A stretch of 64,000 nucleotides of DNA from Pirellulaceae bacterium (GCA_041741535.1 JBGSJV010000027.1:12837-76836), one strand, 5' to 3'. Counted from the first letter of the stretch, positions 45,701 through 63,354 are shown. Numbers and translations: made by a program. Notes: generated by a model from the letters alone, not told the origin.

Positions 45701-46494
45701 TCGCATCGCGAAAAAGGCGTTTTTTCATTCAGGTGATCAAGGAAGAAGCACTGTTGGATCGAGTTCTCGGAGCCGAAGCGAAAGAAGTCATTGGAGAGGT
45801 TGTGCAGAATTGGGAAGAACGGACACTCGATAAGAGGTTGTGGTACGATGATGGAGACGAAAAGATCTTGCAGTACTTAGCGAAGGACCCTGGCAACGAA
45901 CAACTGATTGCATTGATCACCAGTAATGCTCGAAGTGCACAGGTGACTGTAGACGTCTCCGCCGGGAAAATCCAAAAGGTGCTCGATTGCGACGCCGTTT
46001 TTGGCAACGCAATTGCACTTCATCCGAGTTTGCCAGTCATCGCTGTCGCCGAAAACGACAGAGTCAGCTTGCGGGATATCGATTCGGGTAAGTCCTTGTC
46101 TCAGCTTGAAATAGGCGTGGAACGACCGACACACCTGGCATTCAGTCCAGACGGCAACCGTTTGGTCCTCTCATCTGAATGGGAAAGCACCGTGGCGGTT
46201 GTCGACATTGAGAGTGGAACAGCGGCCTTTCGTCTCGTCGGGCATGTCGGTGGTGTCATGCATGCAAGTTTTTCGTTTGATGGCAAGCGTATTCTGACTT
46301 GTGCGACCGATGGAAAACTTCGGATTTGGGATGCTGACAGCGCGACTCTGTTATGGGTCATCGATGAATCTCAAATGCCACTGAACTCATTGTCGGTCAG
46401 TAGCGATGGCCACTACCTAGTGGCTGGAAGCGGCCAGCGCAATGGAGTCGGCGGCGGATCAATCTTGTTATGGGACTTGGAACCGGAGAAATAG
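42790..46494 (+). CDS. Ser/Thr protein kinase - TM helix - WD40 beta-propeller protein
   Basis: GGLGALYLARD, VIVKAI, HRDIKPDNIMV, DWGLAK, GSPIYMSPEQ. TM helix LVASTITFFMVVLVALVSTSVLL. WD40-like repeats: AVRIWDAVSG, AIRIWDLKDG, VIRHYDLDE, LRIWDADSA. Confidence 0.9.
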   Translation: MFENEKPDSLSDLWELRQKQNAPPTSSDMNGGSPESEPQVVERAAKRKLFDSVFGPDLDTIPNRPDEIGEFCNGRYKVEALFDEGGLGALYLARDTELGRLVIVKAIRASHSDDHDSQRQFVNEAAITGQLEHPGIVPIYGFGRDQHRRPYYTMQKIKGTKLSEEIRQFHEHRANDGGHIKAFQRLLEDFRSVCLTIHFAHSRNVIHRDIKPDNIMVGKFGEVLVIDWGLAKQISATDSLSAPARDMPQVDEFEPIAVPNAFQTRHGAVKGSPIYMSPEQSEGSTAKIGPASDIYGLGATLYQVVTGRPPFEGSSQEVLLQVKEGKVRPPSQVAADVPLALEAICLKAMQRDPDQRYQTAKDLAEDVECFLAGEPVSAYNEPWTDTVQRWGRRNKTLVASTITFFMVVLVALVSTSVLLTKYNADLFIAKNAAETATTAEQQRANELEKSLYVNQIMLAQAAWNEPDLHRTSDILDATTLGRRSLEWNYAKRLVTRVNDLAWNQPPAIEPTWINSLTSSANGAWLMATFEQESAFEPGKFHEPIKVIPTTDNVSRVPKLSLISLAATFGVPAQILCFSPSGDEVLCRVPSENGGTERQYRLALVGIQTGQAIWQTEPLTDDSTSIFKAGFLMPEPIADPLKSPQVGESPDRQSGSQIVVMTDPQVISPELGTTGRVARIEFRDALTGGFLKTFETNTNIVAERACFSPNGQRIALMDMLNVTVFSVIADDSPQTLTGDNGFFFCDVAFSPDASLMATASADHAVRIWDAVSGSSIQVLWGMRKRVRCLAFDPSGNRIAACGEEGAIRIWDLKDGKLLNVLPTKDTETYTITFSHDGSQIYSGGSDGVIRHYDLDEPPVARTIQHENRVSQVQLNSQGDTIAAIIGWAENSKVCVYDRQSARLKFETDLYDARYPSEALFVGDIDFSPDGKTLAIGGDNVVHLVDADTGAKRWEHRGLEGRLKFTSDGRHLIASRKRRFFIQVIKEEALLDRVLGAEAKEVIGEVVQNWEERTLDKRLWYDDGDEKILQYLAKDPGNEQLIALITSNARSAQVTVDVSAGKIQKVLDCDAVFGNAIALHPSLPVIAVAENDRVSLRDIDSGKSLSQLEIGVERPTHLAFSPDGNRLVLSSEWESTVAVVDIESGTAAFRLVGHVGGVMHASFSFDGKRILTCATDGKLRIWDADSATLLWVIDESQMPLNSLSVSSDGHYLVAGSGQRNGVGGGSILLWDLEPEK

Positions 46495-46652
46495 GTGCAA
46501 ATAGCTCTCTGGCACCGCTCAAAAAGGAGCGTACCGGTTCGGGCAGTACACGAACCAAATATTTCTGCCCCAAATTGGCGGCCCGGTTCGCTTGTTCCAT
46601 GGAGCGGGGGCTTTCAAACTAGCCAGACCACCTTTTTCACAGGAACAACGCC

Positions 46653-47162
46653 ATGTACAGTAAACCCCGTTTTATTCTAGCTGCGGTTATTCTGATCGCG
46701 TCGATATCGACAATATCGACCTCGAGGGCAGACGACTTCGTAGTTGATGACAATACCTACGCGGCGATTGCGTACTCTCAGGCGACCGGACGTTACGGAT
46801 ACGCCTACGACTATCGTTCGCGAAAGTCGGCAGAACAAGCCGCCGTTCGCAATTGCAAAGCGGACGATGCCAAGGCAGTTTGTTGGGTAAATGCTGGATG
46901 GTGTGCCCTGGCCTTGGGAGATGATCAAAAGTGTTATGGTACAGGCTACACTTATGGTAATGGAGCGACACACAGCGAGGCGAGCCGCCAAGCTGTCTTC
47001 GATTGCCAGAAACGAACGACGGGAGCCCATGTAGCCGTATTCCTGCTTTCCGATGGACAACTCGTTTTTACTGTCAACAGCGATGAGTCGAACACGAAGC
47101 AGGTCGAAGAATCGGTGAAAGCTGACCCTGTACCGTCTTCAGGCAGTCCACAGTCGAAGTGA
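46653..47162 (+). CDS. Secreted DUF4189 domain protein
   Basis: Signal peptide, then YAAIAYSQATGRYGYAYDYRSRKSAEQAAVRNCK...CALALG...YGTGYTYG...EASRQAVFDC, which is the DUF4189 pattern. Confidence 0.7.
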   Translation: MYSKPRFILAAVILIASISTISTSRADDFVVDDNTYAAIAYSQATGRYGYAYDYRSRKSAEQAAVRNCKADDAKAVCWVNAGWCALALGDDQKCYGTGYTYGNGATHSEASRQAVFDCQKRTTGAHVAVFLLSDGQLVFTVNSDESNTKQVEESVKADPVPSSGSPQSK

Positions 47163-47324
47163 CGATCTGGGAATCGGACCCCATGCGTTAGCTGGAGGTT
47201 GCAACCCGATCGGGTACAATCAAACGTGACTTCATATTCGTCAAAGCAAAATATGCTGTGGATTTGCTCCTGCAGCAGTCGATTGCGTTTGGAATACACT
47301 TCTTTGTCTAAGTGCGAGTGCGAC

Positions 47325-50300
47325 ATGTACAAGAGAAAAACTGATCGCGACGATGCACGGCGCGAACTCCAGAGAATCCTGCTTGACGAAGAAGCCGACG
47401 ACCCAACCGCGCCGCCGAATGCCCTGTTATCATCAACGGCATACTATATCTTGCCAGAATTCTCAAATCTCGTTCCACGACTCCGCACGATCGTCGCTGC
47501 ACATTCCGACCGCAACCTGCGGATTCGCGCTGCCGAAGCATTGGTGTTGTGGGGAGAGCCGAGCGGTAATTCACTTGCGATGTTGATTGATTTCCTGAGT
47601 TCCAACTTTCGGCGAGAAGAACGCATCGCTGCCATTCAGGCGTTAGGACACATTGGTCCTCCCGCTGCTTGCGCGATTCAGCCGCTGGTCCAGTTGTTGA
47701 GTGATGGCGACGCCGAGATTCGATCCACCAGCCTCCAATCATTGCTGTTGATCCGACCGGAACCTGACCCAGCCGGGCGTCTGGTCGATTTCCTATTCAA
47801 GCAAGAACTCGATGCCAATGAAGCGATCCGCCTACTTGTGGCTATGGGGAGACCAGTTGTGAAGCAACTCACGCAAAAATTGGAGTTGGAACGAAACGAG
47901 GATCGACATCTTGCGATCAACGCTCTCTCGCAGATTGGTTGGGCGCCGCCGGATGCGATTGCGACTATTTTGGCGTCGTTTCAGTTCGAATACTGCTGGA
48001 ATTCACTACTTGATCGGGGGCGATTATTTGCTCCTGATCGGCGAATGGAGAGTTTTTTCTGGTTCGATCAACCAGAGGTCGCGATGGCACATGCCATTCA
48101 CCATCCGGAGGTCTTAGTCCGCCGACCGGTGACGTCAATGCTAGCCCATTGGTACGCGCCCCAACAAGCGGATCTGTTACCTGCACTGCTGTCCTCAGCG
48201 CAGGATGTTGATCATGAAGTTCGTCAGAATTCGGTACGATCATTGATCCGATGGGCACATCGTGAACCGTCACATTGGGAGCCGATTTTGCCGCTTCTGC
48301 TGCAGGCTGTCCGAGATTCGTCGGTTCTCGTGCGTCGCAATGTCCTCGAGAATCTCTATTTAATGAAGGAACGACCTTCGGATCGTGATGCGTTGTTGGA
48401 GGTATTGTCAGACGTTGATCCCGATGATCGGTTGCGATCCGATGCCGACACCGAACGGCGGGCTCTTGCCCTCGATTTTGATGCCCGCATTCAAGATCTG
48501 ATCGATGCAGTCAAAACATCCGTAGAATTGGATGAGAGTGCGGTCAGTCACCTACGAAGGCTGGGACCGGCAGCTAGGGCTGCCATGCCATGCCTTGTTG
48601 CGCGCTTGGGGCAAGAAACAGATTCCCGCTATCGTAGCAGGCTGGGATATGCGATCGCGGCAATTAATCCTCAACTGGCGATCATCCGTGACCTGTTGGA
48701 CGACGACGACCCAGAAGTTCGGTTCTTGACGCTTGCTGGTTTGCAATCATCGGGGCAGCCATTGGATGAGCTAAAGCCACTGATTCTTATTCGCCGTTCA
48801 GACGACGATGCTTCAGTGCGGCACGAAGCGGCGACGCTGTTGTGGTCGTTGGACCAGGACGTTGCACCTTATCTGAGGGTACTCGTTGACATAATGCAAC
48901 AACAACCGCTTTATACGTGCAAAGTTCGAGTACTATTCAATGGTGCACCACTCGATTGCTTGCGTGACGATTGTTGGCCTGAGGTGACGGACGAACTCCT
49001 CAAGCTAGCGCATTCCAATACTGCGGCAATCGCTCAAATCGCGTTGATTCTTGAGGAAGATAAACGACAGAGCTTGCACATGCTGCGACTGAACTGGGAG
49101 TTGTTCCATAACGTCAGCATCGTCTCAGACGTTGCTCGTGGCTTGGGCGGTGATTTTCATCATTGTATTGCAAGTGCCGAATTGCTGCATCGCATCGGTT
49201 GTCAAGCTACTGCCGCAGTACCCGAACTACGCGGTCAACTCGGTGCAGATTACTATTTGTACCGACTTCATGCTCTGCAAGTGCTCCAGCAGATCGGGCC
49301 TGCCGCTGAAATGGCTCTGGGCGATGTCGTCCATGTCTTGAATTGGGGCACAACGAACGCAGCAAACGATGAAGAAGGATTTTGCGAAGACGCAGTGCGA
49401 GCTGAAGCCGCAAGTACAATCGGCTGTATTGTACCTGAACTGAGCGACCTCGTACCGATTCTGAAGTTGATCGCTGGCAATCCATACGTACGCTCGACCC
49501 TGGCGCGTGTTGCTGAGACCGATTCCGTTGAGGTGGTGAAATCGATGTTGTTGGCGCTCGCGAAACGTCACAGCATTGCGCCCTCAATGACTAATACGAC
49601 AGACAGCAAGCAGCAGCCGACAGTGTGTGCGATGGATGTCGAAGAATTGGTCCGTACGCTGCAAGATGAACAATCGGCACATCGCAATGGCGCAGCACTC
49701 GCTTTGGCAAATCTGGGGCCAGCGGCTGCCATGGCGATACCGCACCTCGCATTCCTGTTGAGTGAATCCCAATCGACTGCCTTGCGCGACACCGTGATCG
49801 TTGCGCTGGGACGTTTTGGAGCCGCCGCTGTTGCGCCACTCCAAGAGTTGATTGGACACAGTGATTGGATCGTGCGACTGGAAGCAGCGGAGGCATTGCA
49901 CCGCACAGAAGCTGTGCCAGAGTTTGAATTGCCTTCGATCCTGGCGCTGCTCGACAACGTCGATGGCAGTGATCCTATGTGTCACCAACGACAACTTGCT
50001 CCCGTAACGTTTCGACGAATTCTCAATCAGATATTCAACTTAGTCAATTCTCCTCTTAGCGAACACATATTAAGTGACGCATCGCGGCGGCTGCTGGGTC
50101 CGTTCAGCATGCTCATCCAGGCTCGGGGTTGGCATCTGCGCGACTGCGCAATTGGCAACCTGGGTCGCTTCGGTCGTAAAGCAGAGCCTCTCGTGCCCCT
50201 AGTACTGGACGCCTTGCATGATTCAGATTGGTTGGTGCGACAGGCAGCGCTCTACACCATAGAAAAGATTGCGACACCCACCACGGAAGTCATTGCGGCG

Positions 50301-50390
50301 CTCCAGCGCACGTCGAATGACCCTTTTGACGCCGTGCGTGACCTGGCAATTTCGATTGTTCAGGAATGGGGTCCCCTTGTATCGGATTGA
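47325..50390 (+). CDS. Large HEAT-repeat protein
   Basis: Many PBS-lyase/HEAT-like units: NLRIRAAEAL, DAEIRSTSLQSL, DHEVRQNSVRSL, DPEVRFLTLAGL, DASVRHEAATLL, DWIVRLEAAEAL, DWLVRQAALYTI. The start is uncertain (ATG 47325 or the track start at 47199). Confidence 0.75.
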   Translation: MYKRKTDRDDARRELQRILLDEEADDPTAPPNALLSSTAYYILPEFSNLVPRLRTIVAAHSDRNLRIRAAEALVLWGEPSGNSLAMLIDFLSSNFRREERIAAIQALGHIGPPAACAIQPLVQLLSDGDAEIRSTSLQSLLLIRPEPDPAGRLVDFLFKQELDANEAIRLLVAMGRPVVKQLTQKLELERNEDRHLAINALSQIGWAPPDAIATILASFQFEYCWNSLLDRGRLFAPDRRMESFFWFDQPEVAMAHAIHHPEVLVRRPVTSMLAHWYAPQQADLLPALLSSAQDVDHEVRQNSVRSLIRWAHREPSHWEPILPLLLQAVRDSSVLVRRNVLENLYLMKERPSDRDALLEVLSDVDPDDRLRSDADTERRALALDFDARIQDLIDAVKTSVELDESAVSHLRRLGPAARAAMPCLVARLGQETDSRYRSRLGYAIAAINPQLAIIRDLLDDDDPEVRFLTLAGLQSSGQPLDELKPLILIRRSDDDASVRHEAATLLWSLDQDVAPYLRVLVDIMQQQPLYTCKVRVLFNGAPLDCLRDDCWPEVTDELLKLAHSNTAAIAQIALILEEDKRQSLHMLRLNWELFHNVSIVSDVARGLGGDFHHCIASAELLHRIGCQATAAVPELRGQLGADYYLYRLHALQVLQQIGPAAEMALGDVVHVLNWGTTNAANDEEGFCEDAVRAEAASTIGCIVPELSDLVPILKLIAGNPYVRSTLARVAETDSVEVVKSMLLALAKRHSIAPSMTNTTDSKQQPTVCAMDVEELVRTLQDEQSAHRNGAALALANLGPAAAMAIPHLAFLLSESQSTALRDTVIVALGRFGAAAVAPLQELIGHSDWIVRLEAAEALHRTEAVPEFELPSILALLDNVDGSDPMCHQRQLAPVTFRRILNQIFNLVNSPLSEHILSDASRRLLGPFSMLIQARGWHLRDCAIGNLGRFGRKAEPLVPLVLDALHDSDWLVRQAALYTIEKIATPTTEVIAALQRTSNDPFDAVRDLAISIVQEWGPLVSD

Positions 50391-50518
50391 AGAACTCTCA
50401 TTCGTCTGACTTCGGTGGCACCGAGGCCAAGAGGTTTTAGCAGCTTCGGACAACCCAATCAATTCATTAAGGCAGAGTTAGCAGGACACCCGTTCAGAAC
50501 GGTGTAGGAGAAAAACGT

Positions 50519-51745
50519 ATGAACAATGGAACGAGAAGAGAGCTCGAAGACGCAATTCGCCATCTATCGGATAGAGACGAGCGAACTCGACAAAGTGCGA
50601 TCGCATTATTTAGGTCTGATCCCAACGAAAGTTTGCGGTACTTGATCGAGAGTCTTCAAACCAATCCAAACTTTCGCTGGAAGACTTTGTGTGCCTTTCG
50701 CTACTTAGATGGAAACCTAGTGACCGCGTTGCCAGTTGTGCTGCCCCATCTGCACGACGAACACCGCCTTTGCCGCATCGCGGCAGTCGAAATCATTATG
50801 CAAATGGGGACAGACGCAAAGGCCGCAGTGCCGGAACTGATCAAGTTATTGGATGTAAAGGATCAGGAGTTCAAAGCACTTGCCCTAAAGGGTCTAGTTA
50901 AAATCGGTCTTACTCCGACGGATACGGCAGGGATCGCTCCGCTGGGCAAAATACTCGGCAAAGAAATCTGCAAAGATAAGCCGAACCGAGAGGTCATTGG
51001 CAGCGTGTCAGCTTTGCTGCGTGCAATTGGTCCAAGTTCCATACCGACATTCGTCAGTTGCTTGCGTAAGGCGACACGCTCTTCAATGTTCCTGGACGAT
51101 GAATACGATGAATGGTCTTTTGAACCCGTGTTCGAAGCACTTCAAGGATTGCTACCCAAGTCGAAAAATGCAGCTAAACAACTGATTAGTCTGCTTGAGT
51201 TAACCGGGTCACCACTGGGATTTCGGGAGAACGTCTTGTTTGCGCTGAGTAGTGTTGGCCCGACCGATGTTGATCGCGTGGTGCGTTCATTCATTGAGCT
51301 TGGAACACATATCGATATCGCGTGTGAGAGGTCACATCTGGCTTTGTTCGGCGCGTTATTCAGAATTGGCCCGGCCGCCATACCAACTCTGCTTAGGATT
51401 CTTCGCTGTCACGACGATACCCAAAGCGTTTTTGCTGCACAAGTTCTGGGTACTTACAACAACGACCCATACCCATGTGAAGTAAGCGAAGAATTGAGTC
51501 AAGCAGCGAAAGCGACAATACCTGCATTGATTGCGGCATTTCAAGCAGGCGGACGGGAGTTGAAGGAAGCCTGCGTAGATGCCTTAGGTACGATGGCTGC
51601 AGAATCCAAAGACGCTGTAAAAATCCTGATCGCTGCTGTCGATGACCCTAGTATTAATGGAAAAAGCGGACTTACACAAACAGGCGGTCAAGAGACAGCC
51701 CTTCGCGCACTGGAGTCAATATTGAACGATCGATCGCGAAGATGA
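50519..51745 (+). CDS. HEAT-repeat protein
   Basis: DERTRQSAIALF, EHRLCRIAAVEII, AVPELIKLLD, and other repeats. AGGAGA lies 8 nt upstream of the ATG. Confidence 0.75.
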   Translation: MNNGTRRELEDAIRHLSDRDERTRQSAIALFRSDPNESLRYLIESLQTNPNFRWKTLCAFRYLDGNLVTALPVVLPHLHDEHRLCRIAAVEIIMQMGTDAKAAVPELIKLLDVKDQEFKALALKGLVKIGLTPTDTAGIAPLGKILGKEICKDKPNREVIGSVSALLRAIGPSSIPTFVSCLRKATRSSMFLDDEYDEWSFEPVFEALQGLLPKSKNAAKQLISLLELTGSPLGFRENVLFALSSVGPTDVDRVVRSFIELGTHIDIACERSHLALFGALFRIGPAAIPTLLRILRCHDDTQSVFAAQVLGTYNNDPYPCEVSEELSQAAKATIPALIAAFQAGGRELKEACVDALGTMAAESKDAVKILIAAVDDPSINGKSGLTQTGGQETALRALESILNDRSRR

Positions 51746-52129: not shown

Positions 52130-53452
52130 ATGCTTCCAATAAAACTGGACGTGGCTAAGTTTGCGTACGTTTGTCGACGGTTTCCTCTGGCCGCGGGCTG
52201 GTCGGCCATAATTGGGGCCCTAGCAAATCGATTTGTCAATATCGGGAGGCAACTTTGGAACAAGACCCCGCTGACGCTCACTGGCGCTTTTGCGATACCG
52301 CTTTTGATTTGGCTGGCAGCTTCGATCGGTCTAGGAAGGCAAGATCGCGTTGTCCTTTCCATCGCGGCGATTGGACTTGCTTGGATCTGCTTGGCGATGT
52401 TGACGGTGAGTGTGGCCGCCATTTGGATCTGGTTTCGGAAACACAAAGGCCCCGCGAACACAATCTCGCTGAATGCTGGCGAGTCCGCATTTACTGGTTT
52501 CACGGTTTCGCGATTTCCGTGGGGAATTTTCCTTCAAATTCGCATCGAATGGATCAATCCTCGCGGTGTTGAAATTTCGTTGGATCCTCAGGGAGGCCAG
52601 TTGTTGGAACGAGCCACTGCGGTGCAGCGAACGTTGGTCGAACGAGTTGTGCGCCGCATACACATCGGCGATCCATTTGGGCTGGTCGCGGTTTGCGTTG
52701 ACTTGGTTGCCGATCAACGCATTGTCGTTTTACCTACTTCAGGCGAAATAGCGCGATTTCCAACCACGTTTTTCAACAATCCAACCGATGTGACACCGCA
52801 CCCAAGTGGCAATTCTGAAGGTGATTTGGCGGAATTTCGCCGTTATGGAGCAGGCGATCCACTCAAACGAATTGTATGGAAAGCCTTTGCCAGAACTCGG
52901 CAAGTGATCGTACGAAATCCCGAAAAAGCAAATTCACCCACAACGAAACGACATATGTACTTTGTCGCGGGCGCTGGCGACGAGGCGACGGCCAGTATTG
53001 CACGAGGAGTGCTCGAGCATCAAACGAGGGAAGATTTTCTGTTTGCCGCCGACGGTTCGGAATCACCAATTTCTACAGTCACCGAAGGGCTCGAATACCT
53101 TGCCAGGTCTGAGCAATTCCGTGAACAAGGAGCCGAAGGGCTCGAACGATTTTTCAAGATAATGGAACCAGGTGCGTCTTGCTGCGTGCTGTTCCTCCCG
53201 CTGCAAGCTGGTACCTGGGTCGATCGCGTTGTCGATCAGCTCTACCGCTCCTCGGTTCAGTGCCAGGTCATCATCGGAACGGACGGAATCACAGAGCGAT
53301 GCCCGTCATTTGCGAGTCGTTTGGTGTGGAAATGTCGTCCAGTCTGGCCAGACAAAAATCACGTTCGACAAATTCATGATCGCGTTGCAGCAACCGGAGC
53401 CTCCGTCTGCGTCGTTGACCGGAGCACGGGGGAACAGCTTGATTTTGGTTGA
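52130..53452 (+). CDS. DUF58 domain protein (vWA-like partner of MoxR ATPases), N-terminal TM helices
   Basis: DUF58 signature LAEFRRYGAGDPLKRIVWKAFARTRQVIV. Two N-terminal TM segments. Confidence 0.8.
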   Translation: MLPIKLDVAKFAYVCRRFPLAAGWSAIIGALANRFVNIGRQLWNKTPLTLTGAFAIPLLIWLAASIGLGRQDRVVLSIAAIGLAWICLAMLTVSVAAIWIWFRKHKGPANTISLNAGESAFTGFTVSRFPWGIFLQIRIEWINPRGVEISLDPQGGQLLERATAVQRTLVERVVRRIHIGDPFGLVAVCVDLVADQRIVVLPTSGEIARFPTTFFNNPTDVTPHPSGNSEGDLAEFRRYGAGDPLKRIVWKAFARTRQVIVRNPEKANSPTTKRHMYFVAGAGDEATASIARGVLEHQTREDFLFAADGSESPISTVTEGLEYLARSEQFREQGAEGLERFFKIMEPGASCCVLFLPLQAGTWVDRVVDQLYRSSVQCQVIIGTDGITERCPSFASRLVWKCRPVWPDKNHVRQIHDRVAATGASVCVVDRSTGEQLDFG

Positions 53453-53536
53453 ATCTCAAGTCCTAACGATCGTCAAGGCCGCTGTGCGCGTACGAATTCA
53501 GCTCCGCGAACGGACAACAAGTAAAGGGAACTTTCG

Positions 53537-55804
53537 ATGATACCGCATGAGAATGTAAATGGCGCCACGGCTCGTTTTGACAACGAACCGTTCAGCTTGG
53601 TTGCGATTCGAATGTGTTGCTACTGGATCGGCGTGCTGCTGATTGTTGGCCCGCTTTCGTCTGGGTTCGGAATCGTCGGTGCGATGGCCGCTGTAACCGC
53701 CGGAATGTTTGCCGCAAATTACCTAAAATCTCGCGAAGTTCGCACGGTGATCGTTGTCCTGGGTTGCCTCGCTGTCGTCGCTTGTAGCCAGTGCTCAATT
53801 CCGCAACTAGTCGTACGATGGTTGGTTGCGTGGGTGGGAATCACTGCAACGGTGGGCGCAACTGATGCGTTGATGTTCGGATTGCTGGCTTTCGGTATCA
53901 CCATCTTAGTGCGGACACTAGCCGCAACATCAGCGGTCTTGCGACTGTGTGAAGTGATCTGCTTGACAGCGCCTGTCGTGCAACTATTCGCAGGCCATCG
54001 CGACATGCGTCTTGGGCAACCAAGGTTCTTGACGGACTGGGCCCTCAGTCGTGGTTTCGACCCCCACACGCTCCTATTGGGTGTAGGCGTCATTACGACG
54101 ATTGGGATAGCAATTCTGCTTCTACCTCGACAACGGTTGAGTCAATCGGCCGGCGCCATAGTGATTTTTCTAGTTTTCTCAGTCGTCGGGTACCAGGCGT
54201 TAGGTGTCCTATTATCCAGGGGTGATTTGACGCATTTTAGCGGTAGCACCCGCGACAATGATCAGAACGACAAGTCACACAATTCGACACCAGCAAAGGA
54301 AGCATCGCCAAACAATAAATCTTCGCGCCCTGAAGAACAGCATGTCAAGTCGTCGAACGACTCCTCATCCGATCCAGACGAAATGCCTTTTGTACCCAAT
54401 CCTAATCCGCGACCATCCACTCCAGTGGGCGTGGTAACGTTGAGTGATGACTACTCCCCCGGCGAACGAGTTTGGCATTTTCGCACGGCAGCCCTTAGCC
54501 AGTACAACGGGCAGCGTTTTGTCGTTGCAGCGGCTTCACAAGTAGACGAGGACATACCTCATGGCTTTCCCGCCGAGCGGGTCGAGTTGCCCGGAGCAAG
54601 CTCAGCGGAAGATGTCACACAGGTAGTACGAACAACGGTCGGTTTGTTGAGTGCTCAGTCACGACCGCTGTGCCTTGTCAGTCCACAGGTCATTGAGCCG
54701 TATCGAGAAAGCCATTCGAAGCTCTTCGTCTCGAGTTACCGAGTGGAGTCTCGCGTTCCCAAAACCAACGTTTCAGAATTCGGTTATCTGGTTGGGATGG
54801 TAAAGTTGGCCGCTGGTTCACCAAGTTGGAATGATCAAACGAAAGAGCATTACCTTGCAGGGCCCGAAGACCCTCGCTATGCCGAACTGGCGGCACAAAT
54901 CATGGCTGAGAGTGTCGAGCTAGAAAAAATCATGCCCGAGTATCGCGAGTCGGCCTACCTCAAGGCGCTTTGCGTTCGTCGTTGGCTCGAAAAGAACATG
55001 ACCTATACGATGAAGCCGGGGCATGCGCCGGACGCCAATCCGGTGGCTGAATTCCTGTTCGGTAATCGACGAGGGTACTGCGTCCATGTGGCGCACGCGA
55101 TGGCAAGTTTGCTGCGGACGCTGGGCGTTCCGGCTCGTGTCGCGACTGGATTTGCCGTCAAAACTGAGAATGTATCGACAAAAACCTCGCTTACCATTCA
55201 ATCCACCGACGCTCATGCTTGGGCGGAAATTTATCTAACTGGGATTGGTTGGATTCCAGTCGATGCCTCATTGGAAAACGTCGATTCAGATGTACCAACC
55301 TCCGATCCCTTTGATGCATCCACAGCATTGCATTTGGCAAATGAGCTGCGCGGCTCAAACGCCCCTGGTCAGAACGAATCGTCAGACCTTGCCGCGCGGG
55401 TGGGCTACTTTGGGCGACGTTTCCTTATGACCGCACTTGTTCTTGTCCTATGCGGGCCCTACCTGGTCAAAATTTGGAGACGGTTGGCGCCACACATCGC
55501 TTCAAGGCAGACACTGCACCGCCTCTGTTACCGCACCGTCCTCGACCGGTTGGCGGAAGTCGGCTTACACCGCAGAGCGGGTGAAACACGGGAAGAGTTT
55601 TCCGAACGAGTGGCCCCGTGGGCGCCCCAATTGCCCGATTTCACCCAGGCACACGAGCGTTACGCCGGCGGAGCCAACGTCGCAACAGAATACGACTGGC
55701 GTTTTCTGCAGCGTGTGATTGAGAAGCAACTTTCCACGAGCTTCTCGCTACGAAGGCGACTGATCGGCCTTTTGCATCCTCTGAGTTGGACCAAGGTTCA
55801 TTGA
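53537..55804 (+). CDS. TgpA-like membrane transglutaminase (multi-TM N-terminus, transglutaminase core, C-terminal TM + DUF4129-like tail)
   Basis: Cys-His-Asp core contexts: GNRRGYCVHVAHAMASLLRTLGVPARVATGF, DAHAWAEIYLTGIGWIPVDAS. About six TM helices at the N-terminus. Confidence 0.85.
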   Translation: MIPHENVNGATARFDNEPFSLVAIRMCCYWIGVLLIVGPLSSGFGIVGAMAAVTAGMFAANYLKSREVRTVIVVLGCLAVVACSQCSIPQLVVRWLVAWVGITATVGATDALMFGLLAFGITILVRTLAATSAVLRLCEVICLTAPVVQLFAGHRDMRLGQPRFLTDWALSRGFDPHTLLLGVGVITTIGIAILLLPRQRLSQSAGAIVIFLVFSVVGYQALGVLLSRGDLTHFSGSTRDNDQNDKSHNSTPAKEASPNNKSSRPEEQHVKSSNDSSSDPDEMPFVPNPNPRPSTPVGVVTLSDDYSPGERVWHFRTAALSQYNGQRFVVAAASQVDEDIPHGFPAERVELPGASSAEDVTQVVRTTVGLLSAQSRPLCLVSPQVIEPYRESHSKLFVSSYRVESRVPKTNVSEFGYLVGMVKLAAGSPSWNDQTKEHYLAGPEDPRYAELAAQIMAESVELEKIMPEYRESAYLKALCVRRWLEKNMTYTMKPGHAPDANPVAEFLFGNRRGYCVHVAHAMASLLRTLGVPARVATGFAVKTENVSTKTSLTIQSTDAHAWAEIYLTGIGWIPVDASLENVDSDVPTSDPFDASTALHLANELRGSNAPGQNESSDLAARVGYFGRRFLMTALVLVLCGPYLVKIWRRLAPHIASRQTLHRLCYRTVLDRLAEVGLHRRAGETREEFSERVAPWAPQLPDFTQAHERYAGGANVATEYDWRFLQRVIEKQLSTSFSLRRRLIGLLHPLSWTKVH

Positions 55805-55923
55805 CATTATCGTGAGTCTTTTCAGGAATTTGCGTCGTGCAGTTGCCCCATCATCGCCAGTTCCTTCGCTTATATAGATGAGTCGAAATCGTGTTTCACC
55901 CTTCAAATTGGAGAAAACTGTAA

Positions 55924-57045
55924 ATGTCTGCATGCACACCAATGATTCGCGATCGCATTGCAAACTGCGACGAAACGGATTCGCGCACGCCCGTGGGCGG
56001 CAAGAGTGATCAAGAGTTGTTTGCCACAGATCACGAGCTCTCCAGCAATGATGTTCGCCAAGCCGCAACCGTCGAAAGTTTAGAAGACGCCAAAGCACTT
56101 GCAACCAATCTCGGCAACCTCTGCCGTGAAGCCGTTCGTGGGCGCGAAGACGTGATCGAGCTTGTCCTGATCGCTATGCTGGCAGATGGCCACGTATTGC
56201 TAGAGGATCATCCGGGCTCGGGCAAGACAACTCTAGCCAAGGCACTCGGTTCGGCAATTGACGCGGGAGTAACCGCCAGCCAAATATCGTCGTTTCGCCG
56301 GATTCAATTCACGCCCGATCTGCTCCCATCCGATGTGACCGGAACCACGGTATTCGATGGCGAAGCTAACCGATTCGATTTTCATCCGGGCCCGGTTTTC
56401 GCCAACATCGTGTTAGGCGATGAAATCAATCGTACCGGCCCCAAAGTCCAAGCGGCCTTGCTCGAGGCGATGGCTGAGAAGCAAGTAACGGTCGATAATC
56501 ACACCTATCAGCTCGATCCGCTGTTTTTCGTTTTGGCAACACAGAACCCCTTGGATCTGAATGGCACCTATCCCTTGCCGGTGGCTCAACTCGACCGTTT
56601 TTTGTTCAAGATCAAGATGAATCACTTGTCGCGCGAAAGCGAATTGGAGATTCTTGCCAGTCGTGGAAATGGTTGCCAACGATCCACGACTTGGAAAGTC
56701 AGCCCGGCAACGATTGTTGCCGCTCGAGATGTCATTCGCAAGCAAGTGCATATCGCGCCGGTGATTCATGAGTGCCTAGTCGATATTTCATTGGCGATGC
56801 GTGCGGACCGCCGAGTTGCGCAGGGCGTTTCCACCCGCTGTCTGGTGCTGGCCATCGACGCGCTAAAATCACGAGCAGCTTTGCATGGACGAGACTTTGT
56901 GTCGCCACGAGACGTCAAGGCGCTCGCATGCCCGCTGTTCAGTCACCGACTGCAACTAAAATCGGCTGGAGTCGATCCAGACCAGATCGTCGTCGAGTGC
57001 TCGTTACCGGTGATCGAATCGACGATTCGCAAGTCAATGAAATAA
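55924..57045 (+). CDS. MoxR-family AAA+ ATPase
   Basis: Walker A HPGSGKTTLAKALG; RIQFTPDLLPSDVTGT; Walker B/sensor VLGDEINRTGPKVQAALLEAMAEKQVTV; FFVLATQNP. GGAGAA upstream of the ATG. Confidence 0.9.
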   Translation: MSACTPMIRDRIANCDETDSRTPVGGKSDQELFATDHELSSNDVRQAATVESLEDAKALATNLGNLCREAVRGREDVIELVLIAMLADGHVLLEDHPGSGKTTLAKALGSAIDAGVTASQISSFRRIQFTPDLLPSDVTGTTVFDGEANRFDFHPGPVFANIVLGDEINRTGPKVQAALLEAMAEKQVTVDNHTYQLDPLFFVLATQNPLDLNGTYPLPVAQLDRFLFKIKMNHLSRESELEILASRGNGCQRSTTWKVSPATIVAARDVIRKQVHIAPVIHECLVDISLAMRADRRVAQGVSTRCLVLAIDALKSRAALHGRDFVSPRDVKALACPLFSHRLQLKSAGVDPDQIVVECSLPVIESTIRKSMK

Positions 57046-57082
57046 CGAATCATCACGGCTCTAAAATGAAAGAGGAATTCTC

Positions 57083-59182
57083 ATGATGCGGTCGAAATTC
57101 GTGCGTCCGATATTGCTCCTGCTCGTGTTACCCATTGCCGTCGTTTGTGTTTGGTTCGTAAGCCGAATCATGGGCGGAACGGATGTTTCAGAGCTTTACC
57201 CACCTGCCGCTTTTGCTCCAGTCCCACAGGATTTCCCCAGGATCATTGCTTTATTAGAAGCCCCGTCCAAGTCCAACGAAGTTGAATGGAAGGCCTACGT
57301 GGAGCAATTTGAGGCGATCAATGAGTACTTGATGAATTCGGGAGCAGCGCAACGGTCCACTGACGAGGAGCGAGAGGTAATTCATGCTGATATCAAACGG
57401 GAGTTCGCAAAATCGCGAGAACGTGCGACTCATATTCTATCAAAAAACCTTGATTCAATACCAGCTCTGATTGCATTAGCTAGGGCGGAGGCGTTTGGCG
57501 ACGGAAACCTGCCTCAGGGGCTCTTCTTAATCCGCCAAGCTCGTCGCATCTGCGAATCGCGTGGAATTGCCAACTCAGCGGATGCAGATGCCCGCGAATG
57601 GTATTTGCGGATAATGCACCAAGAATACGATATGTTGGGTCGACTCGACCGACGACTAGAGCAACTGGAAGTTGTGAATCGCATGGAGTCGATTTACGAA
57701 CCATTGCCAGTGCTAAAAGTCTGGCCGCTAATCAAGCTTAAGAAATATGACGAAGCTGCGGAGGCAACTCGGTTGGCAGACGAGACGGGACGATTCGCAG
57801 CGACGGTCTTAAACGCTCGCTGTGCGATGGCGTGGGAAATGCAACAAAGAAACGAGGCGTATGATGCAGGCTCAGCGATGATCGAGGCGCACGGCGATAG
57901 CCCGGTGCATTGGAAGAATCATGGCGAAGCCGCCTTGGGCGTTTTTCGTTTTGACGAAGCGGAGAAGGCTTTTCTGAAGTCCACCACATTGAGTCAAACG
58001 GGACTCTCTAGCACTGCCTACAATGATTTAACGGTTCTGTACCTTCAACAAGGTCGTATAGCGGAGGCAATCGACGCGATCAAGAACGCCAACCGACAGC
58101 GGGCCAGTCGAGAACCGAGCAACTTGCAACAAGACCAAGCGACAACGGACTTGTCCAAAGCGATGTTGATGATAGTCTTGGGACGGGGAGATGATGCGAT
58201 TCGTCACGCGCGCTCGGCTTATGAACTGCCCGATCGAGGTGGCAATACAAGCGAAGACGCCAGCGTCCTGAGGCTCAGTTGCGCATTGGGATACGCAGCG
58301 GCATTGCGATTACAGCGTGAACAGCAATATGAAGCTGCAAATTCGTCACTGCTGCCCACACTGAATTTCGATGTTTTGCTTTTCGACCACAAGTCCCGCA
58401 ATCTAACCGACGTGCAGCTACTCTGCAGCACTCTCCGTCCGCACCTTGGTGGTGGACCGGGAATCAGCAAGGGCATTCCTTCCTGGCTACGCGTTTCTGT
58501 AATACAATTTTTCCCGCCAGTTATCGCTGCTGAGGCGGTCCGTCAAGTTCGCGAAGTGGAAGACCATCCGCTAGCGATCCCCTATCTCGATGCGATTGAA
58601 GCCGAAGTCTGTCTGCGTCTGGGAGACTATGAGACAGCGTCCTCGCTGGCGAAACAGTCACTTGAGCAACTGCCTGCTCAAGGGGAAAAGCTTTTATGCG
58701 GTCGAGTTGCACTGGTTGGTGCCCAAGCCGCGTTTCTTTCCGGGGATGTCTCTTCGGCATGGCCACTATTTCAACGAGCACTACAAGATTTTCCTACAGC
58801 CTTTCGCCTGCTGGGCGTCGCATTGCCTGTTCGAATTGAGCATGATGAGCAAAAGGGCTCCGCGTTATTAGCTAGAGCTGTCGGCCGGTCCCGCCGCTTT
58901 CGACCAGACGCGAGTGGTTTTGTGTTCACATTCAATCAGGGCGACGGAATGGTTGATTGCAATCTAACAAGCCCCAATGGTTCACAAATCTTCGCGGAAT
59001 CGATTAAACTTGTTGATGGCGAGCCCGATGCGATTGGCCAAGCGCTCGAACGTATTCACGATCGCTTGCTCGCGCCTGCAATCGACCTGACGCAGTCCGA
59101 CATGAGTTCGCTTGACGGTTCGCCCATTGCCGCCCGCAGTCGCGAAATGATTGATCATTTACTGAAACCTAAATCGCCTTAG
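57083..59182 (+). CDS. Membrane-anchored TPR-repeat protein
   Basis: N-terminal TM helix FVRPILLLLVLPIAVVCVWFV. TPR-like helical repeats throughout (e.g. AYNDLTVLYLQQGRIAEAIDAIKNA). AGAGGA upstream of the ATG. Confidence 0.7.
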   Translation: MMRSKFVRPILLLLVLPIAVVCVWFVSRIMGGTDVSELYPPAAFAPVPQDFPRIIALLEAPSKSNEVEWKAYVEQFEAINEYLMNSGAAQRSTDEEREVIHADIKREFAKSRERATHILSKNLDSIPALIALARAEAFGDGNLPQGLFLIRQARRICESRGIANSADADAREWYLRIMHQEYDMLGRLDRRLEQLEVVNRMESIYEPLPVLKVWPLIKLKKYDEAAEATRLADETGRFAATVLNARCAMAWEMQQRNEAYDAGSAMIEAHGDSPVHWKNHGEAALGVFRFDEAEKAFLKSTTLSQTGLSSTAYNDLTVLYLQQGRIAEAIDAIKNANRQRASREPSNLQQDQATTDLSKAMLMIVLGRGDDAIRHARSAYELPDRGGNTSEDASVLRLSCALGYAAALRLQREQQYEAANSSLLPTLNFDVLLFDHKSRNLTDVQLLCSTLRPHLGGGPGISKGIPSWLRVSVIQFFPPVIAAEAVRQVREVEDHPLAIPYLDAIEAEVCLRLGDYETASSLAKQSLEQLPAQGEKLLCGRVALVGAQAAFLSGDVSSAWPLFQRALQDFPTAFRLLGVALPVRIEHDEQKGSALLARAVGRSRRFRPDASGFVFTFNQGDGMVDCNLTSPNGSQIFAESIKLVDGEPDAIGQALERIHDRLLAPAIDLTQSDMSSLDGSPIAARSREMIDHLLKPKSP

Positions 59183-59253: not shown

Positions 59254-62200
59254 ATGGATTCGGATGAACTCGACGAAGATTTCCTTTCCTTTTCTTTCTC
59301 GAAAGAGTCGACTTCGAGCATTGAAGAATCGCATGTTCCCGGCAATTTTCATGAGCAATTAGGCATCCGGATTCAACCTACCTCTGCTGAGGAAATTCGG
59401 CGGGGATCGACGGGCGAGGTGCAAACAGATCGATTTTTTTCAGCCGATCGAAAGAGCTTTCATCCAAAAGGGCTGTTTAGCGAGAAGATCTTCGGACTCA
59501 CATCGGATTGGAAACATTCGAAAATCACTGCGCAGTCGCCGGTCGGTCATATTGAGTTGCCAGTCCCGATCGTGCATCCTCTTTTTCAAAGCGGACTTGC
59601 AGGTCAAGCGGTTCGTGCAGTGCTGGGGCTCACGGAAGCAGAACTCGATCAACTGTTAAAGGGTCGGGGGTGCATCGTCACCGAACCCATGGACTCCGGC
59701 TGGTCATGCGGAGCTATCGTAACCGTTGACGCGTACCAAACAGCCGCCAAGAAGTATGGGGCAGAATTGGCCCCTTTGTACCAAGCCGAGGCTGTTCGTT
59801 GGTTGATGGGGCGAGCCACGTTGGATGCGTCGATCGCACGCGCCAAACTCGTTTCTCCTGACAACAGCGGAGTTGTAAGACTAATTCGCAAATGGTTCGA
59901 GAGGGGGCGTAGACTCGATTCGGTGATACTCGACGTTCTCCCCGTCATTCCACCGGCGATGCGTGCGATGCAACGCACATCATCGGGCGAGCTGCGACGA
60001 CACGATCTCACCTGCTTGTACCAAAAAGTGGTTCGCCGATGCGGTCGAATTCGAAAGCTAGTCAAACTTGACGCTCCCTCGGTGATCTTAAGGAATGAGG
60101 CTCGATTGTTGCATGAGGCCGTCGAAAATTTGCTCGTGAAGCCGTCGAAGGCCGATGAATACAAATCCAAATCGCGGCGGTTTATGCCGCTTCTGCAAAC
60201 TCTACAAGAATCGCATACTCCACTGTGCGAAGAGGGACGCACGAAGACGTGGAAGAATTCATTGCGACTGCCTGCATCGCCCAATCCCAGACTGCGAATC
60301 ACTCAGTGCGGCCTACCGCGAACAGCAGCGACGTTGGAAATGCTGGCGCCAATTTGGCTGGCACATTGCAAACAGATCGGACTTGATCCGAGTCTTGCGG
60401 AATGGCAATTACGACATCCGACGGCATCGGTGTGGGAAGTGATCGCGTTGCAACTCCCCTGGCACGCCGTCTTGTTGAGACACGAAGCCCGTCGCAGCCA
60501 ATCGTCGCTACAGGCCTTTCAACCCAAGCTGGTGGACGGCAGAGCCATACAGCTTTCGCCGCTTGCACTTGGTGCCCTACGTGATGGTTCGATCCAAGAG
60601 GACGTATCGGTCTTTCTGCTCCAATCGCGATCGGCGTGCAGCCAAGCTTTGGTTGAGATGTTAGCAGATCAATGCCGCAACTCGGCCAGTGGTAAGCTTG
60701 CCTATCAACCAACCTTGGATATGGTAACGGGCTGCTTTTTAATGACACGCGATCCATTGCCGATTTCTGAGGGTTTGTCACGCAGACCACTTCACTTGGG
60801 TGCAATGGCGTTTCGCACGATGGCCGAAGTGCAGAGTGCATTGGACCAACGCGTGGTATCGTGGAATTCACCGATTTTGTTTTATCCCGATCGACGCACG
60901 TTCGCCGAACAACCGCTGTGCGAAAAAGTCTGTGCCCACCGTCAACGGATCGGGACGACTCCCGGTCGCGTGATCTTCAACGATTTCTTCCCTTTAGAAT
61001 TGCCATTCGTCAACTACCAGGTCACGGAAAACTCTTTCGGCGACCAACTGGAAGCGACTCACGCAATCATCGGCGCGACCCGCACACGCCAACTGATTGA
61101 CGCCCTGCAAGCGACTGCACTTGCCGTGCTAACGCAATCCGGTCTCAGCATCTCGATCTCGGATTTGGCACCTCCACGAAGGAAGCCAGCCATCCTCGAT
61201 GAAACAAACAAGCAGATCGTTAAATTGAAGAGGTATTATGATCGAGGAATTATCTGTTCAATGGAACGACTTAATCAAACCTACGATGCTTGGACGAATG
61301 CATCGAAGATCCTAAATCAGGAAATAGCAGTTCAGTTGTCAAGTGAGAGTAAGAATCCTACCTCGCTATTTGCGGCTGTGGCCCACACTACAAGCATGAC
61401 TTGGGTACAACACCTATGCGGCATGTTCGGTATAGTCCTGCCGCCCGATCGCAGAATTCACGAAGTAGCCGTTACCTCCAACTGGGGAGAAGGCTTGAGC
61501 GTCAGAGAATATTGGCAGGTTGCACTACAGACGCGGCACTTCACCATCGATGAATGCAAACGGACTGAAGACGCGGAGCAGATCACACGAACTTTGTTGA
61601 GTGCTTTGCAAGACGTCACCATTACCGTAGCCGATTGCGGAACGACCGAGGGAATCGAAAGGAGTAGCTCCGCTGACAAGAGCCTATCCGAAGCTTTAAT
61701 TGACCGAATCAGTTGCGAAGCGATTGTCAACCCAATCAACGGTGAGCCGCTCGTACAAGTTGGGGAACGGATCACGGCGGAAATCGTTCAAGGATTGGCT
61801 TCGCTCAACGTTCAGAAACTGCGTGTGCGTAGCCCTGCGACATGTGATTCCGAGCGAGGCATTTGCCAACAATGTTATGGTCGCAACCAATCGACGGGGG
61901 AATTGACTGAAATAGGCACATCGGTCGGTGTGAATGCCGCGTACGCCCTCGGGGAGTACGCCCACCATTTGCTGAATTGGTATAAGATTCGGGAATACCG
62001 AGCACCGCGGTTTGGATGGGTGAATGGAACAGAGCGTGCCGATTGCTCAGGGAATATTCAGTTCCAACTGCCGAGGACGGTTCGCAAACAAGATGGACGA
62101 ATTGTCGCACTGCAGCCTGGCAAAATATTAATACGAGATCGATATCGAATCCTGCAAGAGATCGCCGTTCCAGTTGGCGCCGAGGTTCTTGTCCGTAACG

Positions 62201-63354
62201 AAGCGGAAGTACGTCGCGATGACGAGATTTGTAAGTGGAATACAAATGGAATACCCCTGATCGCGGAAAACGCCGGCTCGATCATACTCCGTGATTTTGT
62301 TCCGGGAGATAATTGTCGATATTCGGATGACTCCGATACCAACAAGTTCGTCACATCTGATCTGACACGAGGGACATTGCGGCCGCGTGTCTTGATCCTC
62401 AATGCGGCCGGGCAACCGATCGAAGCGCATTACCTGGCTGACCATTCCGTTGTTGAGGTGGTTGACGGCCAGTCGGTGGCCGCGGGAGACATGCTCGCCC
62501 TGCAGCTCAATCGTTCGTCTCTATTGGAGGATCGCGCGTCAGAGGCTCAGACGGTATTTGGTTGGGAATTACAAGAATTGCTGGAAGCAGGTCCGACTCA
62601 TGAAACGGCGGTCTTGGCACCCTGCGACAGCGTCGTTTCTTCTGTTGAGCGAAAGGGAGAGCATCGAAAAGTTGTATTGCAAAATGTAGACCGCGAGGAA
62701 TTTGAATTTGTGTTGTCACGAAACGCCCATTTGCAAGTGATCGTTGGAGACGCGGTTAAACCAGGCGATCCGCTGACGGATTCTAGGCAAATCAACCCTA
62801 ACGATATCTTTCGTATCTTAGGGGTGGAGGCAGGTATTCTGTATCTGTTGGGAAGGCTTTCTCGATTGTTTGTAAAAAATCAAATCTCGATAGACAGCAA
62901 GCATATGGAGCTTGTGATTGGCAGGATGCTTTCCCGCGTCAAAATCGATCACCCAGGTGACACCGATTTTGTCGCAGGCGAGGTGATCGAACGCATCGAT
63001 TGGCGGAGAGAGAACGACCGGATTAACCAGTTTGTCCGCATCGCGTCTTCCGAGGCCTCCAAATCTACTGTTGATCAGATTGTTCGACGCGAGGCTTACG
63101 AACTTCTCGCCCGCGAACTGACTTCGCAGAACCAGGCGCCCCCAACCGTACGACGCTCGCGTCCGGCGAGGGCAGCGGCGCAGTTGACGAGTATTCAACA
63201 CCTTGTGAACCCGCACAAACAAGGACGGCGCTCAGGCGAATTCGACGTCGACGTTTTGGCCCGACTCGTGTTGGCTGGGGATGTCAGCTCCATAAACCGA
63301 TTAATAGATCTGATTGTGCGAACCAGCAATGGTGGTACGCGTTGCCGTCCATAA
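59254..63354 (+). CDS. Full-length RNA polymerase beta-prime (RpoC) paralog lacking the catalytic NADFDGD triad and N-terminal Zn ribbon (predicted pseudo-enzyme)
   Basis: Collinear RpoC landmarks: FHPKGLFSEKIFG, VGHIELPVPIVHP, VLPVIPPAMRA, ILRNEARLLHEAVENLL, RITQCGLP, LQAFQPKLVDGRAIQLSPL, ADCGTTEG + CDSERGICQQCYG, KHMELVIGRMLSRVKI. The catalytic loop reads RDGSIQE (60580-60600). The ATG at 59254 is the likely start within the track ORF that begins at 59206. Confidence 0.85.
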   Translation: MDSDELDEDFLSFSFSKESTSSIEESHVPGNFHEQLGIRIQPTSAEEIRRGSTGEVQTDRFFSADRKSFHPKGLFSEKIFGLTSDWKHSKITAQSPVGHIELPVPIVHPLFQSGLAGQAVRAVLGLTEAELDQLLKGRGCIVTEPMDSGWSCGAIVTVDAYQTAAKKYGAELAPLYQAEAVRWLMGRATLDASIARAKLVSPDNSGVVRLIRKWFERGRRLDSVILDVLPVIPPAMRAMQRTSSGELRRHDLTCLYQKVVRRCGRIRKLVKLDAPSVILRNEARLLHEAVENLLVKPSKADEYKSKSRRFMPLLQTLQESHTPLCEEGRTKTWKNSLRLPASPNPRLRITQCGLPRTAATLEMLAPIWLAHCKQIGLDPSLAEWQLRHPTASVWEVIALQLPWHAVLLRHEARRSQSSLQAFQPKLVDGRAIQLSPLALGALRDGSIQEDVSVFLLQSRSACSQALVEMLADQCRNSASGKLAYQPTLDMVTGCFLMTRDPLPISEGLSRRPLHLGAMAFRTMAEVQSALDQRVVSWNSPILFYPDRRTFAEQPLCEKVCAHRQRIGTTPGRVIFNDFFPLELPFVNYQVTENSFGDQLEATHAIIGATRTRQLIDALQATALAVLTQSGLSISISDLAPPRRKPAILDETNKQIVKLKRYYDRGIICSMERLNQTYDAWTNASKILNQEIAVQLSSESKNPTSLFAAVAHTTSMTWVQHLCGMFGIVLPPDRRIHEVAVTSNWGEGLSVREYWQVALQTRHFTIDECKRTEDAEQITRTLLSALQDVTITVADCGTTEGIERSSSADKSLSEALIDRISCEAIVNPINGEPLVQVGERITAEIVQGLASLNVQKLRVRSPATCDSERGICQQCYGRNQSTGELTEIGTSVGVNAAYALGEYAHHLLNWYKIREYRAPRFGWVNGTERADCSGNIQFQLPRTVRKQDGRIVALQPGKILIRDRYRILQEIAVPVGAEVLVRNEAEVRRDDEICKWNTNGIPLIAENAGSIILRDFVPGDNCRYSDDSDTNKFVTSDLTRGTLRPRVLILNAAGQPIEAHYLADHSVVEVVDGQSVAAGDMLALQLNRSSLLEDRASEAQTVFGWELQELLEAGPTHETAVLAPCDSVVSSVERKGEHRKVVLQNVDREEFEFVLSRNAHLQVIVGDAVKPGDPLTDSRQINPNDIFRILGVEAGILYLLGRLSRLFVKNQISIDSKHMELVIGRMLSRVKIDHPGDTDFVAGEVIERIDWRRENDRINQFVRIASSEASKSTVDQIVRREAYELLARELTSQNQAPPTVRRSRPARAAAQLTSIQHLVNPHKQGRRSGEFDVDVLARLVLAGDVSSINRLIDLIVRTSNGGTRCRP

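Follow-up and report, generated by a model that had tools for sequence, protein, structure and literature searches.

The window analysed here, a stretch of 64,000 nucleotides (nt) of one strand from a Pirellulaceae bacterium (GCA_041741535.1 JBGSJV010000027.1:12837-76836), encodes near its end a full-length paralog of the RNA polymerase subunit β′ (RpoC) that has lost the aspartate triad of the active site. We designate as class 1 the group formed by its product, P0001, and five relatives (P0002, P0130, P0131, P0132 and L007), and as class 2 a second set of β′ paralogs lacking the triad, one of which is encoded next to P0001. Because the β′ architecture is retained while the elements that hold Mg2+, nucleoside triphosphates (NTPs), RNA and template DNA have been shed, we favour, with moderate confidence, a binding scaffold rather than an enzyme: class 1 would be a non-catalytic, β′-derived protein acting through contacts with σ, β or the second paralog.

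The open reading frame (ORF) of P0001 starts with an ATG at 59254 (an alternative in-frame TTG lies at 59206) and runs through 1366 codons without a stop, for which the chance probability is about 2e-26 at the local base composition. Its product is identical to the database protein P0001, which carries no name in the sources searched. Scans for sigma-70-type promoters and for terminators around the gene gave background level only. In a phmmer search, amino acids (aa) 110-1273 matched the Xanthomonas β′ chain 6j9e_D (E 9.6e-125). The Pfam scan detected Rpb1 domains 1, 3 and 5 and failed to detect domain 4 and domain 2, the one holding the active site. We modelled aa 30-1190 as a monomer with AlphaFold2 (AF2), at a mean predicted local distance difference test (pLDDT) of 72.8 and a predicted template modelling score (pTM) of 0.42. 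Foldseek returned the β′ chains of solved polymerases as the top structural matches of this model (E. coli β′, E 3.7e-73, probability 1.00). Global template modelling scores were low (0.26), since the model does not place the domains of the isolated chain as they are arranged within the enzyme, and only the local fold match was used. In a MAFFT alignment with six canonical β′ sequences, P0001 is collinear and nearly free of indels apart from one deletion at the N-terminal zinc ribbon, and the spacing from RRF to QCGLP is 48 aa, as in canonical β′. Both the uninterrupted, collinear frame of about 1366 codons and this spacing had been put forward in a first-pass annotation made from the DNA alone, and both stand.

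On TIGR02386, the NCBIfam rpoC equivalog model, P0001 scores 502.5 bits, below the cut-off of 963.5; for comparison, the neighbouring class-2 protein P0278 scores 853.8 bits and the canonical Pirellulaceae β′ P0290 scores 1733.5 bits. The gene does not lie in an rpoB-rpoC operon: a DUF58-TGase-MoxR-TPR block stands upstream and the second paralog converges on it from downstream, and rpoB is absent from the 64-kb window and from every related locus examined. Since the gene lies outside the rpoB-rpoC context and fails an equivalog cut-off that canonical Pirellulaceae β′ pass, it is very unlikely to be the sole rpoC of its genome.

In order to describe what has been lost and kept, we took the positions at least 90% conserved in 71 canonical β′ sequences and scored them in five class-1 proteins, which retain 33-41% of them overall. 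The loop aligned with NADFDGD reads RDGSIQE in P0001, D444 occupying the Ala position and E449 that of the third Asp, and the Asp triad is missing from all six class-1 sequences; between 0 and 5 of the 15 conserved positions of the catalytic loop are left. NRAPTLHRLG is replaced by RHEARRSQSS, and the switch 2 stretch by TPLCEEGRTKTWKNSLRLPA, where P0001 keeps 4 of 26 conserved positions (2-7 across the five proteins). The N-terminal Cys4 Zn ribbon is deleted, leaving 0-1 of 15 positions, and the F-loop is lost. Region H, from SFQETT to GRLIPAGTG, is reduced to 6 of 37 positions in P0001 (4-6 across the class). The trigger loop retains 9/23 and 5/17 positions in P0001 and the bridge helix 10/31 (3-10 in the five proteins). 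Model confidence falls below a pLDDT of 50 at aa 297-334 (the former rudder and switch 2) and at aa 906-923 (the tip of the trigger loop), and is also low at the catalytic loop. The motif losses listed in the first-pass annotation are confirmed at its coordinates, with one correction: it had called the bridge helix, trigger loop and GRLIPAGTG block unrecognisable, which holds for their consensus, yet a long helix is predicted at the bridge-helix position.

Other parts of the β′ architecture are retained. The second Zn site (Zn2), reported earlier to keep its four Cys, does so at C795, C864, C871 and C874; all 13 conserved positions are present in P0001 (12-13 in the five proteins), and the site is fully retained in all class-1 and class-2 members. 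TTxGR is intact (6/6 in the five proteins), the rim helices keep 10-12 of 15 positions, the jaw is present, and the strands of the double-psi β-barrel (DPBB) keep 6-9 of 14. The clamp helices retain 17/32 positions in P0001 (10-17/32 across the five); the hairpin has its usual length and the first helix has most of its basic residues.

In the two-metal mechanism, a β′ without any triad Asp in register cannot make RNA in the known way. Given that the triad is absent and that most elements contacting NTP, RNA and template DNA are gone, we infer that class-1 β′ cannot polymerise RNA. A DxDxD in the catalytic loop appears in none of the alignments. Alternatively, other acidic residues, such as D444 or E449/D450, might carry out nucleotidyl transfer or another reaction, a proposal consistent with the remodelled loop region being the most conserved part of the protein and with an adjacent acidic pair at the third-Asp position in four of the five class-1 proteins. 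However, no member has an in-register DxDxD, P0131 lacks the acidic pair, the proteins have lost NRAPTLHR, the trigger loop, the bridge helix, the F-loop and switch 2, and the model has low confidence at the loop. We thus consider a surviving enzymatic activity highly improbable.

Class 1 is rare: six sequences came out of a 15-billion-protein collection and of the GTDB, sampled at one genome per species. In a word-indexed search across 5.8 billion proteins, P0002 was the sole close relative (42% identity, from a Logan assembly). P0130, P0131 and P0132 came from an exhaustive HMMER search of 1.84 billion cluster representatives, in which they score 762-699 bits and canonical β′ at most 478 bits. 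Scanning the GTDB representatives with the class-1 alignment gave one true match, L007, in a result swamped by canonical rpoC via the CQxCY pattern; L007 is a 2.1-kb contig from a Rhodopirellula sp. metagenome-assembled genome (MAG) and is 69-70% identical to P0001. No true member was found in a scan of JGI metagenomes with a class-1-specific N-terminal pattern.

We compared the coding sequences of these relatives. Over 699 codons, P0001 and L007 differ with a dS (synonymous divergence) of 0.81 and a dN (nonsynonymous divergence) of 0.19, a dN/dS of 0.24. The lowest proportion of nonsynonymous differences (pN 0.06) falls at aa 372-471, and the two sequences do not differ in the degenerate loop. 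Against P0002, synonymous differences are saturated (pS 0.75) and pN is 0.39, with a minimum of 0.29 in aa 419-528. These values show that the gene is under purifying selection and is kept as a non-catalytic protein rather than decaying. The proposal that the locus encodes a maintained, non-polymerising β′ paralog is supported by the absent triad, six intact lineages and the dN/dS. The most constrained part of the protein is the former active-centre region, which argues for a new function of that surface rather than drift, and the remodelled surface of aa 372-530 is the likeliest new functional site.

A pseudogene, or an artefact of assembly or annotation, would account for the extreme rarity of the gene in databases and for its divergence from P0002, which is faster than that of neighbouring genes (42% identity versus 53-81%). 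We give this explanation almost no credence. The frame is open over its whole length, all six class-1 sequences are intact and free of frameshifts, the relatives come from five other independent assemblies, selection is purifying, and the GC content and GC3 (GC at third codon positions) of the gene match those of its neighbours. The comparison of orthologs, suggested earlier as a test for neutral decay, thus found none.

The origin of class 1 can be read from its C-terminal region. In Pirellulaceae, Blastopirellula and Thermoguttaceae, canonical β′ has 40 extra aa inserted between DKHIE and SFQETT, so that the spacing is 120 aa, compared with 79-80 aa in other phyla. Class-2 paralogs have exactly the planctomycete spacing and the insertion signature, and class-1 proteins have the insertion in shortened form. 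The best canonical matches of class 1 are planctomycete β′. Since the lineage-specific insertion is held in common and the best canonical scores are planctomycete, these comparisons show the P0001 gene to be an ancient duplicate of the planctomycete housekeeping rpoC.

A viral origin of class 1 was considered and rejected, as viral β′-like genes resemble canonical β′ far more than they do class 1. Scores of viral loci do not exceed 100 bits with P0001 or about 115 bits with P0130; with canonical β′, nearly all those that give a match reach about 190-390 bits. Taken with the planctomycete insertion and best matches, these scores mean that the gene is not an acquisition from phage or another phylum. 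No viral relative of P0278 was found among the IMG/VR loci. Many of the large IMG/VR contigs L094-L173 encode β′-like genes with FH[PS]xGL[FC]S and GHIELPxP motifs, several of them in two copies; these viral genes have two short N-terminal motifs in common with class 1.

The first-pass annotation had overlooked a second β′-like gene, on the opposite strand at the end of the window. This gene, for the class-2 protein P0278, converges tail-to-tail on that of P0001 across a gap of 139 nt and continues beyond the window. A search with the 168-aa C-terminal fragment alone did not return full-length P0278; the full protein was recovered from databases, from the same contig as the window. In P0278, NADFDGD has become GVEFNGE and SFQETT has become SYRDLR, the bridge helix and trigger loop are degenerate, and the Zn ribbon is retained. 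Its orthologs are P0145 and P0163, the latter 61% identical and from a Planctomycetaceae MAG; P0163 is the sole class-2 relative carrying a name, namely 'hypothetical protein'. Besides these three, class 2 includes P0134, P0143 and others.

The two classes, which are only 25-27% identical to each other, adjoin in a second genome. On contig L004 (span 10001-19499), the class-1 gene for P0130 is followed in tandem, after 55 nt, by a gene for the triad-less β′ P0143, whose loop reads DIIFEGE and which is fused to a C-terminal leucine-rich repeat (LRR) domain of about 350 aa. Orientations and class-2 subtypes differ between this genome and the window. Because of these differences and of the low identity, the adjacency does not reflect recent tandem duplication; it points to a long-standing linkage or a functional coupling.

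More widely, the Asp triad is missing from 28 of the 152 β′-like sequences examined, which are mostly cluster representatives from the HMMER search (P0130-P0277). For the majority of the 28, planctomycete β′ is the nearest match. A few apparently stem from other phyla: non-planctomycete β′ is the better match for P0161, P0189, P0198 and P0276, two of which (P0161 and P0276) also show the short C-terminal spacing. It is therefore possible that dead β′ paralogs occur in phyla beyond planctomycetes. A neighbour-joining tree of the β′ sequences has long branches and served for grouping only, not for branching order. Coordinates of the features of the window are collected in the table.

Features of the P0001 gene and its surroundings, with coordinates counted from the first nucleotide of the window.
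Feature	Coordinates	Strand	Basis or remark
Class-1 dead β′ paralog P0001, 1366 aa	59254..63354	+	ORF, Pfam, phmmer, MAFFT, Foldseek
Zn ribbon deletion point, DWK/HSK junction	59506..59523	+	24-column alignment gap, no Cys
Lid and clamp-helix hairpin, aa 228-296	59935..60141	+	Indel-free, two helices predicted
Switch 2/rudder position, now TPLCEEGRTKTWKNSLRLPA	60217..60276	+	MAFFT alignment
DPBB / former active-centre region, aa 372-530	60367..60843	+	Most constrained part of P0001
RHEARRSQSS in place of NRAPTLHRLG	60478..60507	+	MAFFT alignment
RDGSIQE in register with NADFDGD	60580..60600	+	MAFFT alignment
Bridge-helix position	61510..61614	+	Consensus lost; 36-residue helix predicted (AF2)
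Second Zn site: DCGT (C795), CDSERGICQQC (C864, C871, C874)	61633..61875	+	MAFFT alignment
Trigger-loop N-terminal arm position: QSIGEPGTQLTMRTFH replaced by YALGEYAHHLLNWYK	61936..61986	+	MAFFT alignment
C-terminal region	63037..63354	+	Trace of planctomycete-specific insertion; region H lost
Class-2 dead β′ paralog P0278 (1408 aa), last 168 codons	63494..64000	-	Runs past window end
DUF58-like, transglutaminase/DUF4129, MoxR AAA+, TPR protein	52130..59182	+	Ends 71 nt before P0001 gene
ECF sigma	42069..42626	+	16.6 kb upstream of P0001 gene
Ser/Thr kinase-WD40	42790..46494	+	Directly downstream of ECF sigma
ECF sigma, Ser/Thr kinase-WD40, DUF4189 protein, two HEAT-repeat proteins	42069..51745	+	Related sigma, kinase and HEAT genes recur near other dead paralogs

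The gene block directly upstream of P0001 (DUF58, transglutaminase or TGase, MoxR and TPR) also precedes P0002 on contig L001 and is absent from L004, L005 and L006. In L001, a 144-aa ORF without family match (9446-9880) stands between the TPR gene and P0002, and has no counterpart in the 71-nt gap of the window. An extracytoplasmic function (ECF) sigma gene, which the first-pass annotation had described as adjacent to P0001, lies in fact well upstream of it. Its product of 185 aa has the σ2.2 motif DWED after a Ser-rich stretch, and its kinase-WD40 partner has 1234 aa. This pair is conserved in L001 (79% and 50% identity), 0.7-5 kb downstream of P0002; upstream of the class-2 P0163 (L087) stands a related set of sigma, kinase-WD40 and HEAT genes, and a related ECF sigma divergently adjoins the class-1 P0131 (L005). 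Mutually related ECF sigmas are thus found in the window, L001, L005 and L087, with a Ser/Thr kinase-WD40 in three of these, and four of seven loci carry HEAT genes and MoxR/AAA+ or vWA-type genes. Several planctomycete ECF groups are paired with Ser/Thr kinases instead of anti-sigmas, and sigma region 2.2 contacts basic residues of β′ (PMC8999054). We regard the association of dead β′ paralogs with sigma and kinase genes as suggestive only.

A NADAR-domain protein is encoded within a few kb of a class-1 paralog in L001 (21375-21938) and L004 (7367-7918), the two copies being 69% identical; no copy was found in the window. Elsewhere in the window, positions 29047-40099 hold a type I restriction-modification system (HsdM, HsdS, HsdR) with ion-channel, DUF4357 and Schlafen/AlbA_2 ATPase genes between S and R, and the GC content is locally uneven there (0.50-0.56). 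A 1296-aa ORF at 218-4108 combines M14 carboxypeptidase, DPP-IV N-terminal and S9 peptidase domains, and is followed by an M3 peptidase and then a double sulfatase.

According to the scaffold reading, the class-1 paralog would engage partners that normally dock on β′, the candidates being an ECF-type sigma, bound via the clamp helices, and/or β. It would probably act jointly with the neighbouring class-2 paralog, and the outcome could be that transcription components are sequestered or modulated, in a circuit tied to the ECF sigma and the Ser/Thr kinase. Of the roles proposed in the first-pass annotation, a decoy or adaptor for sigma or β is plausible; the role of nucleic-acid adaptor appears the least probable of those proposed, given the loss of switch 2, the rudder, the Zn ribbon and region H.

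Several observations weigh against a scaffold. Equivalents of R275, R293 and E295, the σ70-binding hot spots of E. coli β′ as provisionally mapped here, are kept in P0001 and not in P0002, P0130 or P0132, and the positions of R293 and E295 vary among members. Without region H, the switch regions and the Zn ribbon, assembly with β and ω could be impaired, and a constrained full-length protein of 1366 aa exceeds the needs of a sigma trap. The AF2 monomer is only moderately confident. Not one neighbouring gene recurs at every class-1 locus, and the MoxR block is present in the window and L001 only. ECF sigma, kinase, HEAT, TPR and WD40 genes abound in planctomycete genomes, and some co-occurrence by chance is thus to be expected; for sigma, a rough estimate gives P ~0.02, with two of the loci orthologous.

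A specific sub-case of the scaffold idea is that the paralog substitutes for β′ in α2β(ω), yielding an inert polymerase that occupies promoters or titrates sigma and core subunits. Collinearity with β′ over the whole length and nearly without gaps speaks for such a dead core enzyme, as do the retained DPBB strands, QCGLP and TTxGR, and an AF2 monomer that, like β′, is not a compact globule on its own. Zn2, which is required for folding and assembly of β′, is retained as well. However, most conserved β′ positions have gone, including those of region H, the switch regions and the Zn ribbon, no rpoB paralog is found near the gene, in the window or in related loci, and a dominant-negative core would carry a cost. 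We therefore consider an inert core rather unlikely.

The scaffold reading may also be extended to the whole family: planctomycetes would maintain dead β′ proteins of at least two ancient classes, repeatedly adjacent, which form non-transcribing polymerase-like complexes or sigma traps. This extension is speculative, and we hold it only tentatively. If true, it would reveal an unrecognised layer of transcription control, exerted by pseudo-polymerase subunits over kinase-linked ECF sigma regulons.

The company of some dead paralogs evokes another role, in which a β′ mimic would bait phage or competitor proteins that target RNA polymerase and signal to effector or signalling genes. The LRR fusion of the class-2 P0143, a TIR protein adjoining the class-1 P0132, and the CHAT-TPR, NPHP3-type TPR and MoxR/vWA genes near dead paralogs are consistent with a guard of this type, and MoxR-vWA ternary conflict systems do exist in planctomycetes (PMC7159879). 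The same source is nonetheless silent on RNA polymerase, the neighbours vary from locus to locus and belong to domain types common in planctomycetes, and selection on the paralog is purifying without a diversifying signal. PADLOC gave no match for P0001, P0278 or the DUF58, TGase and TPR proteins, and only a weak, generic AAA+ match for MoxR; membership of a known defence system was rejected for the paralogs and their partners. Overall, a decoy or guard function appears improbable.

The large subunits of cellular RNA polymerase are, as textbooks have it, single-copy and near-invariant enzymes. In full-text searches of the literature accessible to us, we found no description of bacterial rpoC paralogs without active site, of inactive β′ or of pseudoenzyme polymerase subunits. 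The present finding appears to be a pseudoenzyme form of β′: a maintained, full-length β′ stripped of its chemistry would mean that a subunit of the central transcription machine has a pseudoenzyme form. Nor is it a one-off, as a second dead class adjoins it and about two dozen further triad-less clusters exist. These proteins offer a handle on how planctomycetes, with their large repertoires of ECF sigmas and Ser/Thr kinases, partition or restrain polymerase components. As a natural mutagenesis carried out by evolution, they also offer one on telling the parts of β′ that fold and assembly require from those that serve catalysis.

Class 1 can be set beside four known or related systems. The isolated clamp-helix fragment of β′ is a sigma-binding module; class 1 likewise has the hairpin, at its usual length and with most basic residues of the first helix, and kinase-linked ECF sigmas are encoded nearby. 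In contrast to this module and to anti-sigma factors, which are small domains, class 1 is a full-length β′ scaffold in which the hot spots vary and sigma binding is putative. YonO and the polymerases of crAss-like and jumbo phages are diverged two-barrel homologs of β′ that keep the DxDxD metal site and transcribe. Class 1 resembles such phage and selfish-element proteins in being a diverged member of the two-barrel family with several bacterial β′ elements missing, but the viral genes score 3-7 times higher with canonical β′ than with class 1. With RpoC of Pirellulales and Planctomycetia, class 1 has in common the domain order from the N-terminus to region G, Zn2, the DPBB strands, the lid and clamp helices, the rim helices, the jaw and the C-terminal insertion. 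It differs from RpoC in lacking the Asp triad, the Zn ribbon, switch 2, NRAPTLHR, the bridge-helix and trigger-loop consensus and region H, in its identity of only 28-30% to canonical β′, and in its location outside the rpoB-rpoC operon. Class 2 is nearer to canonical β′ (36-53% identity) and, unlike class 1, retains the Zn ribbon and parts of switch 2 and region H. Both classes are nevertheless planctomycete rpoC duplicates without the Asp triad, stand in similar neighbourhoods and are adjacent in two genomes.

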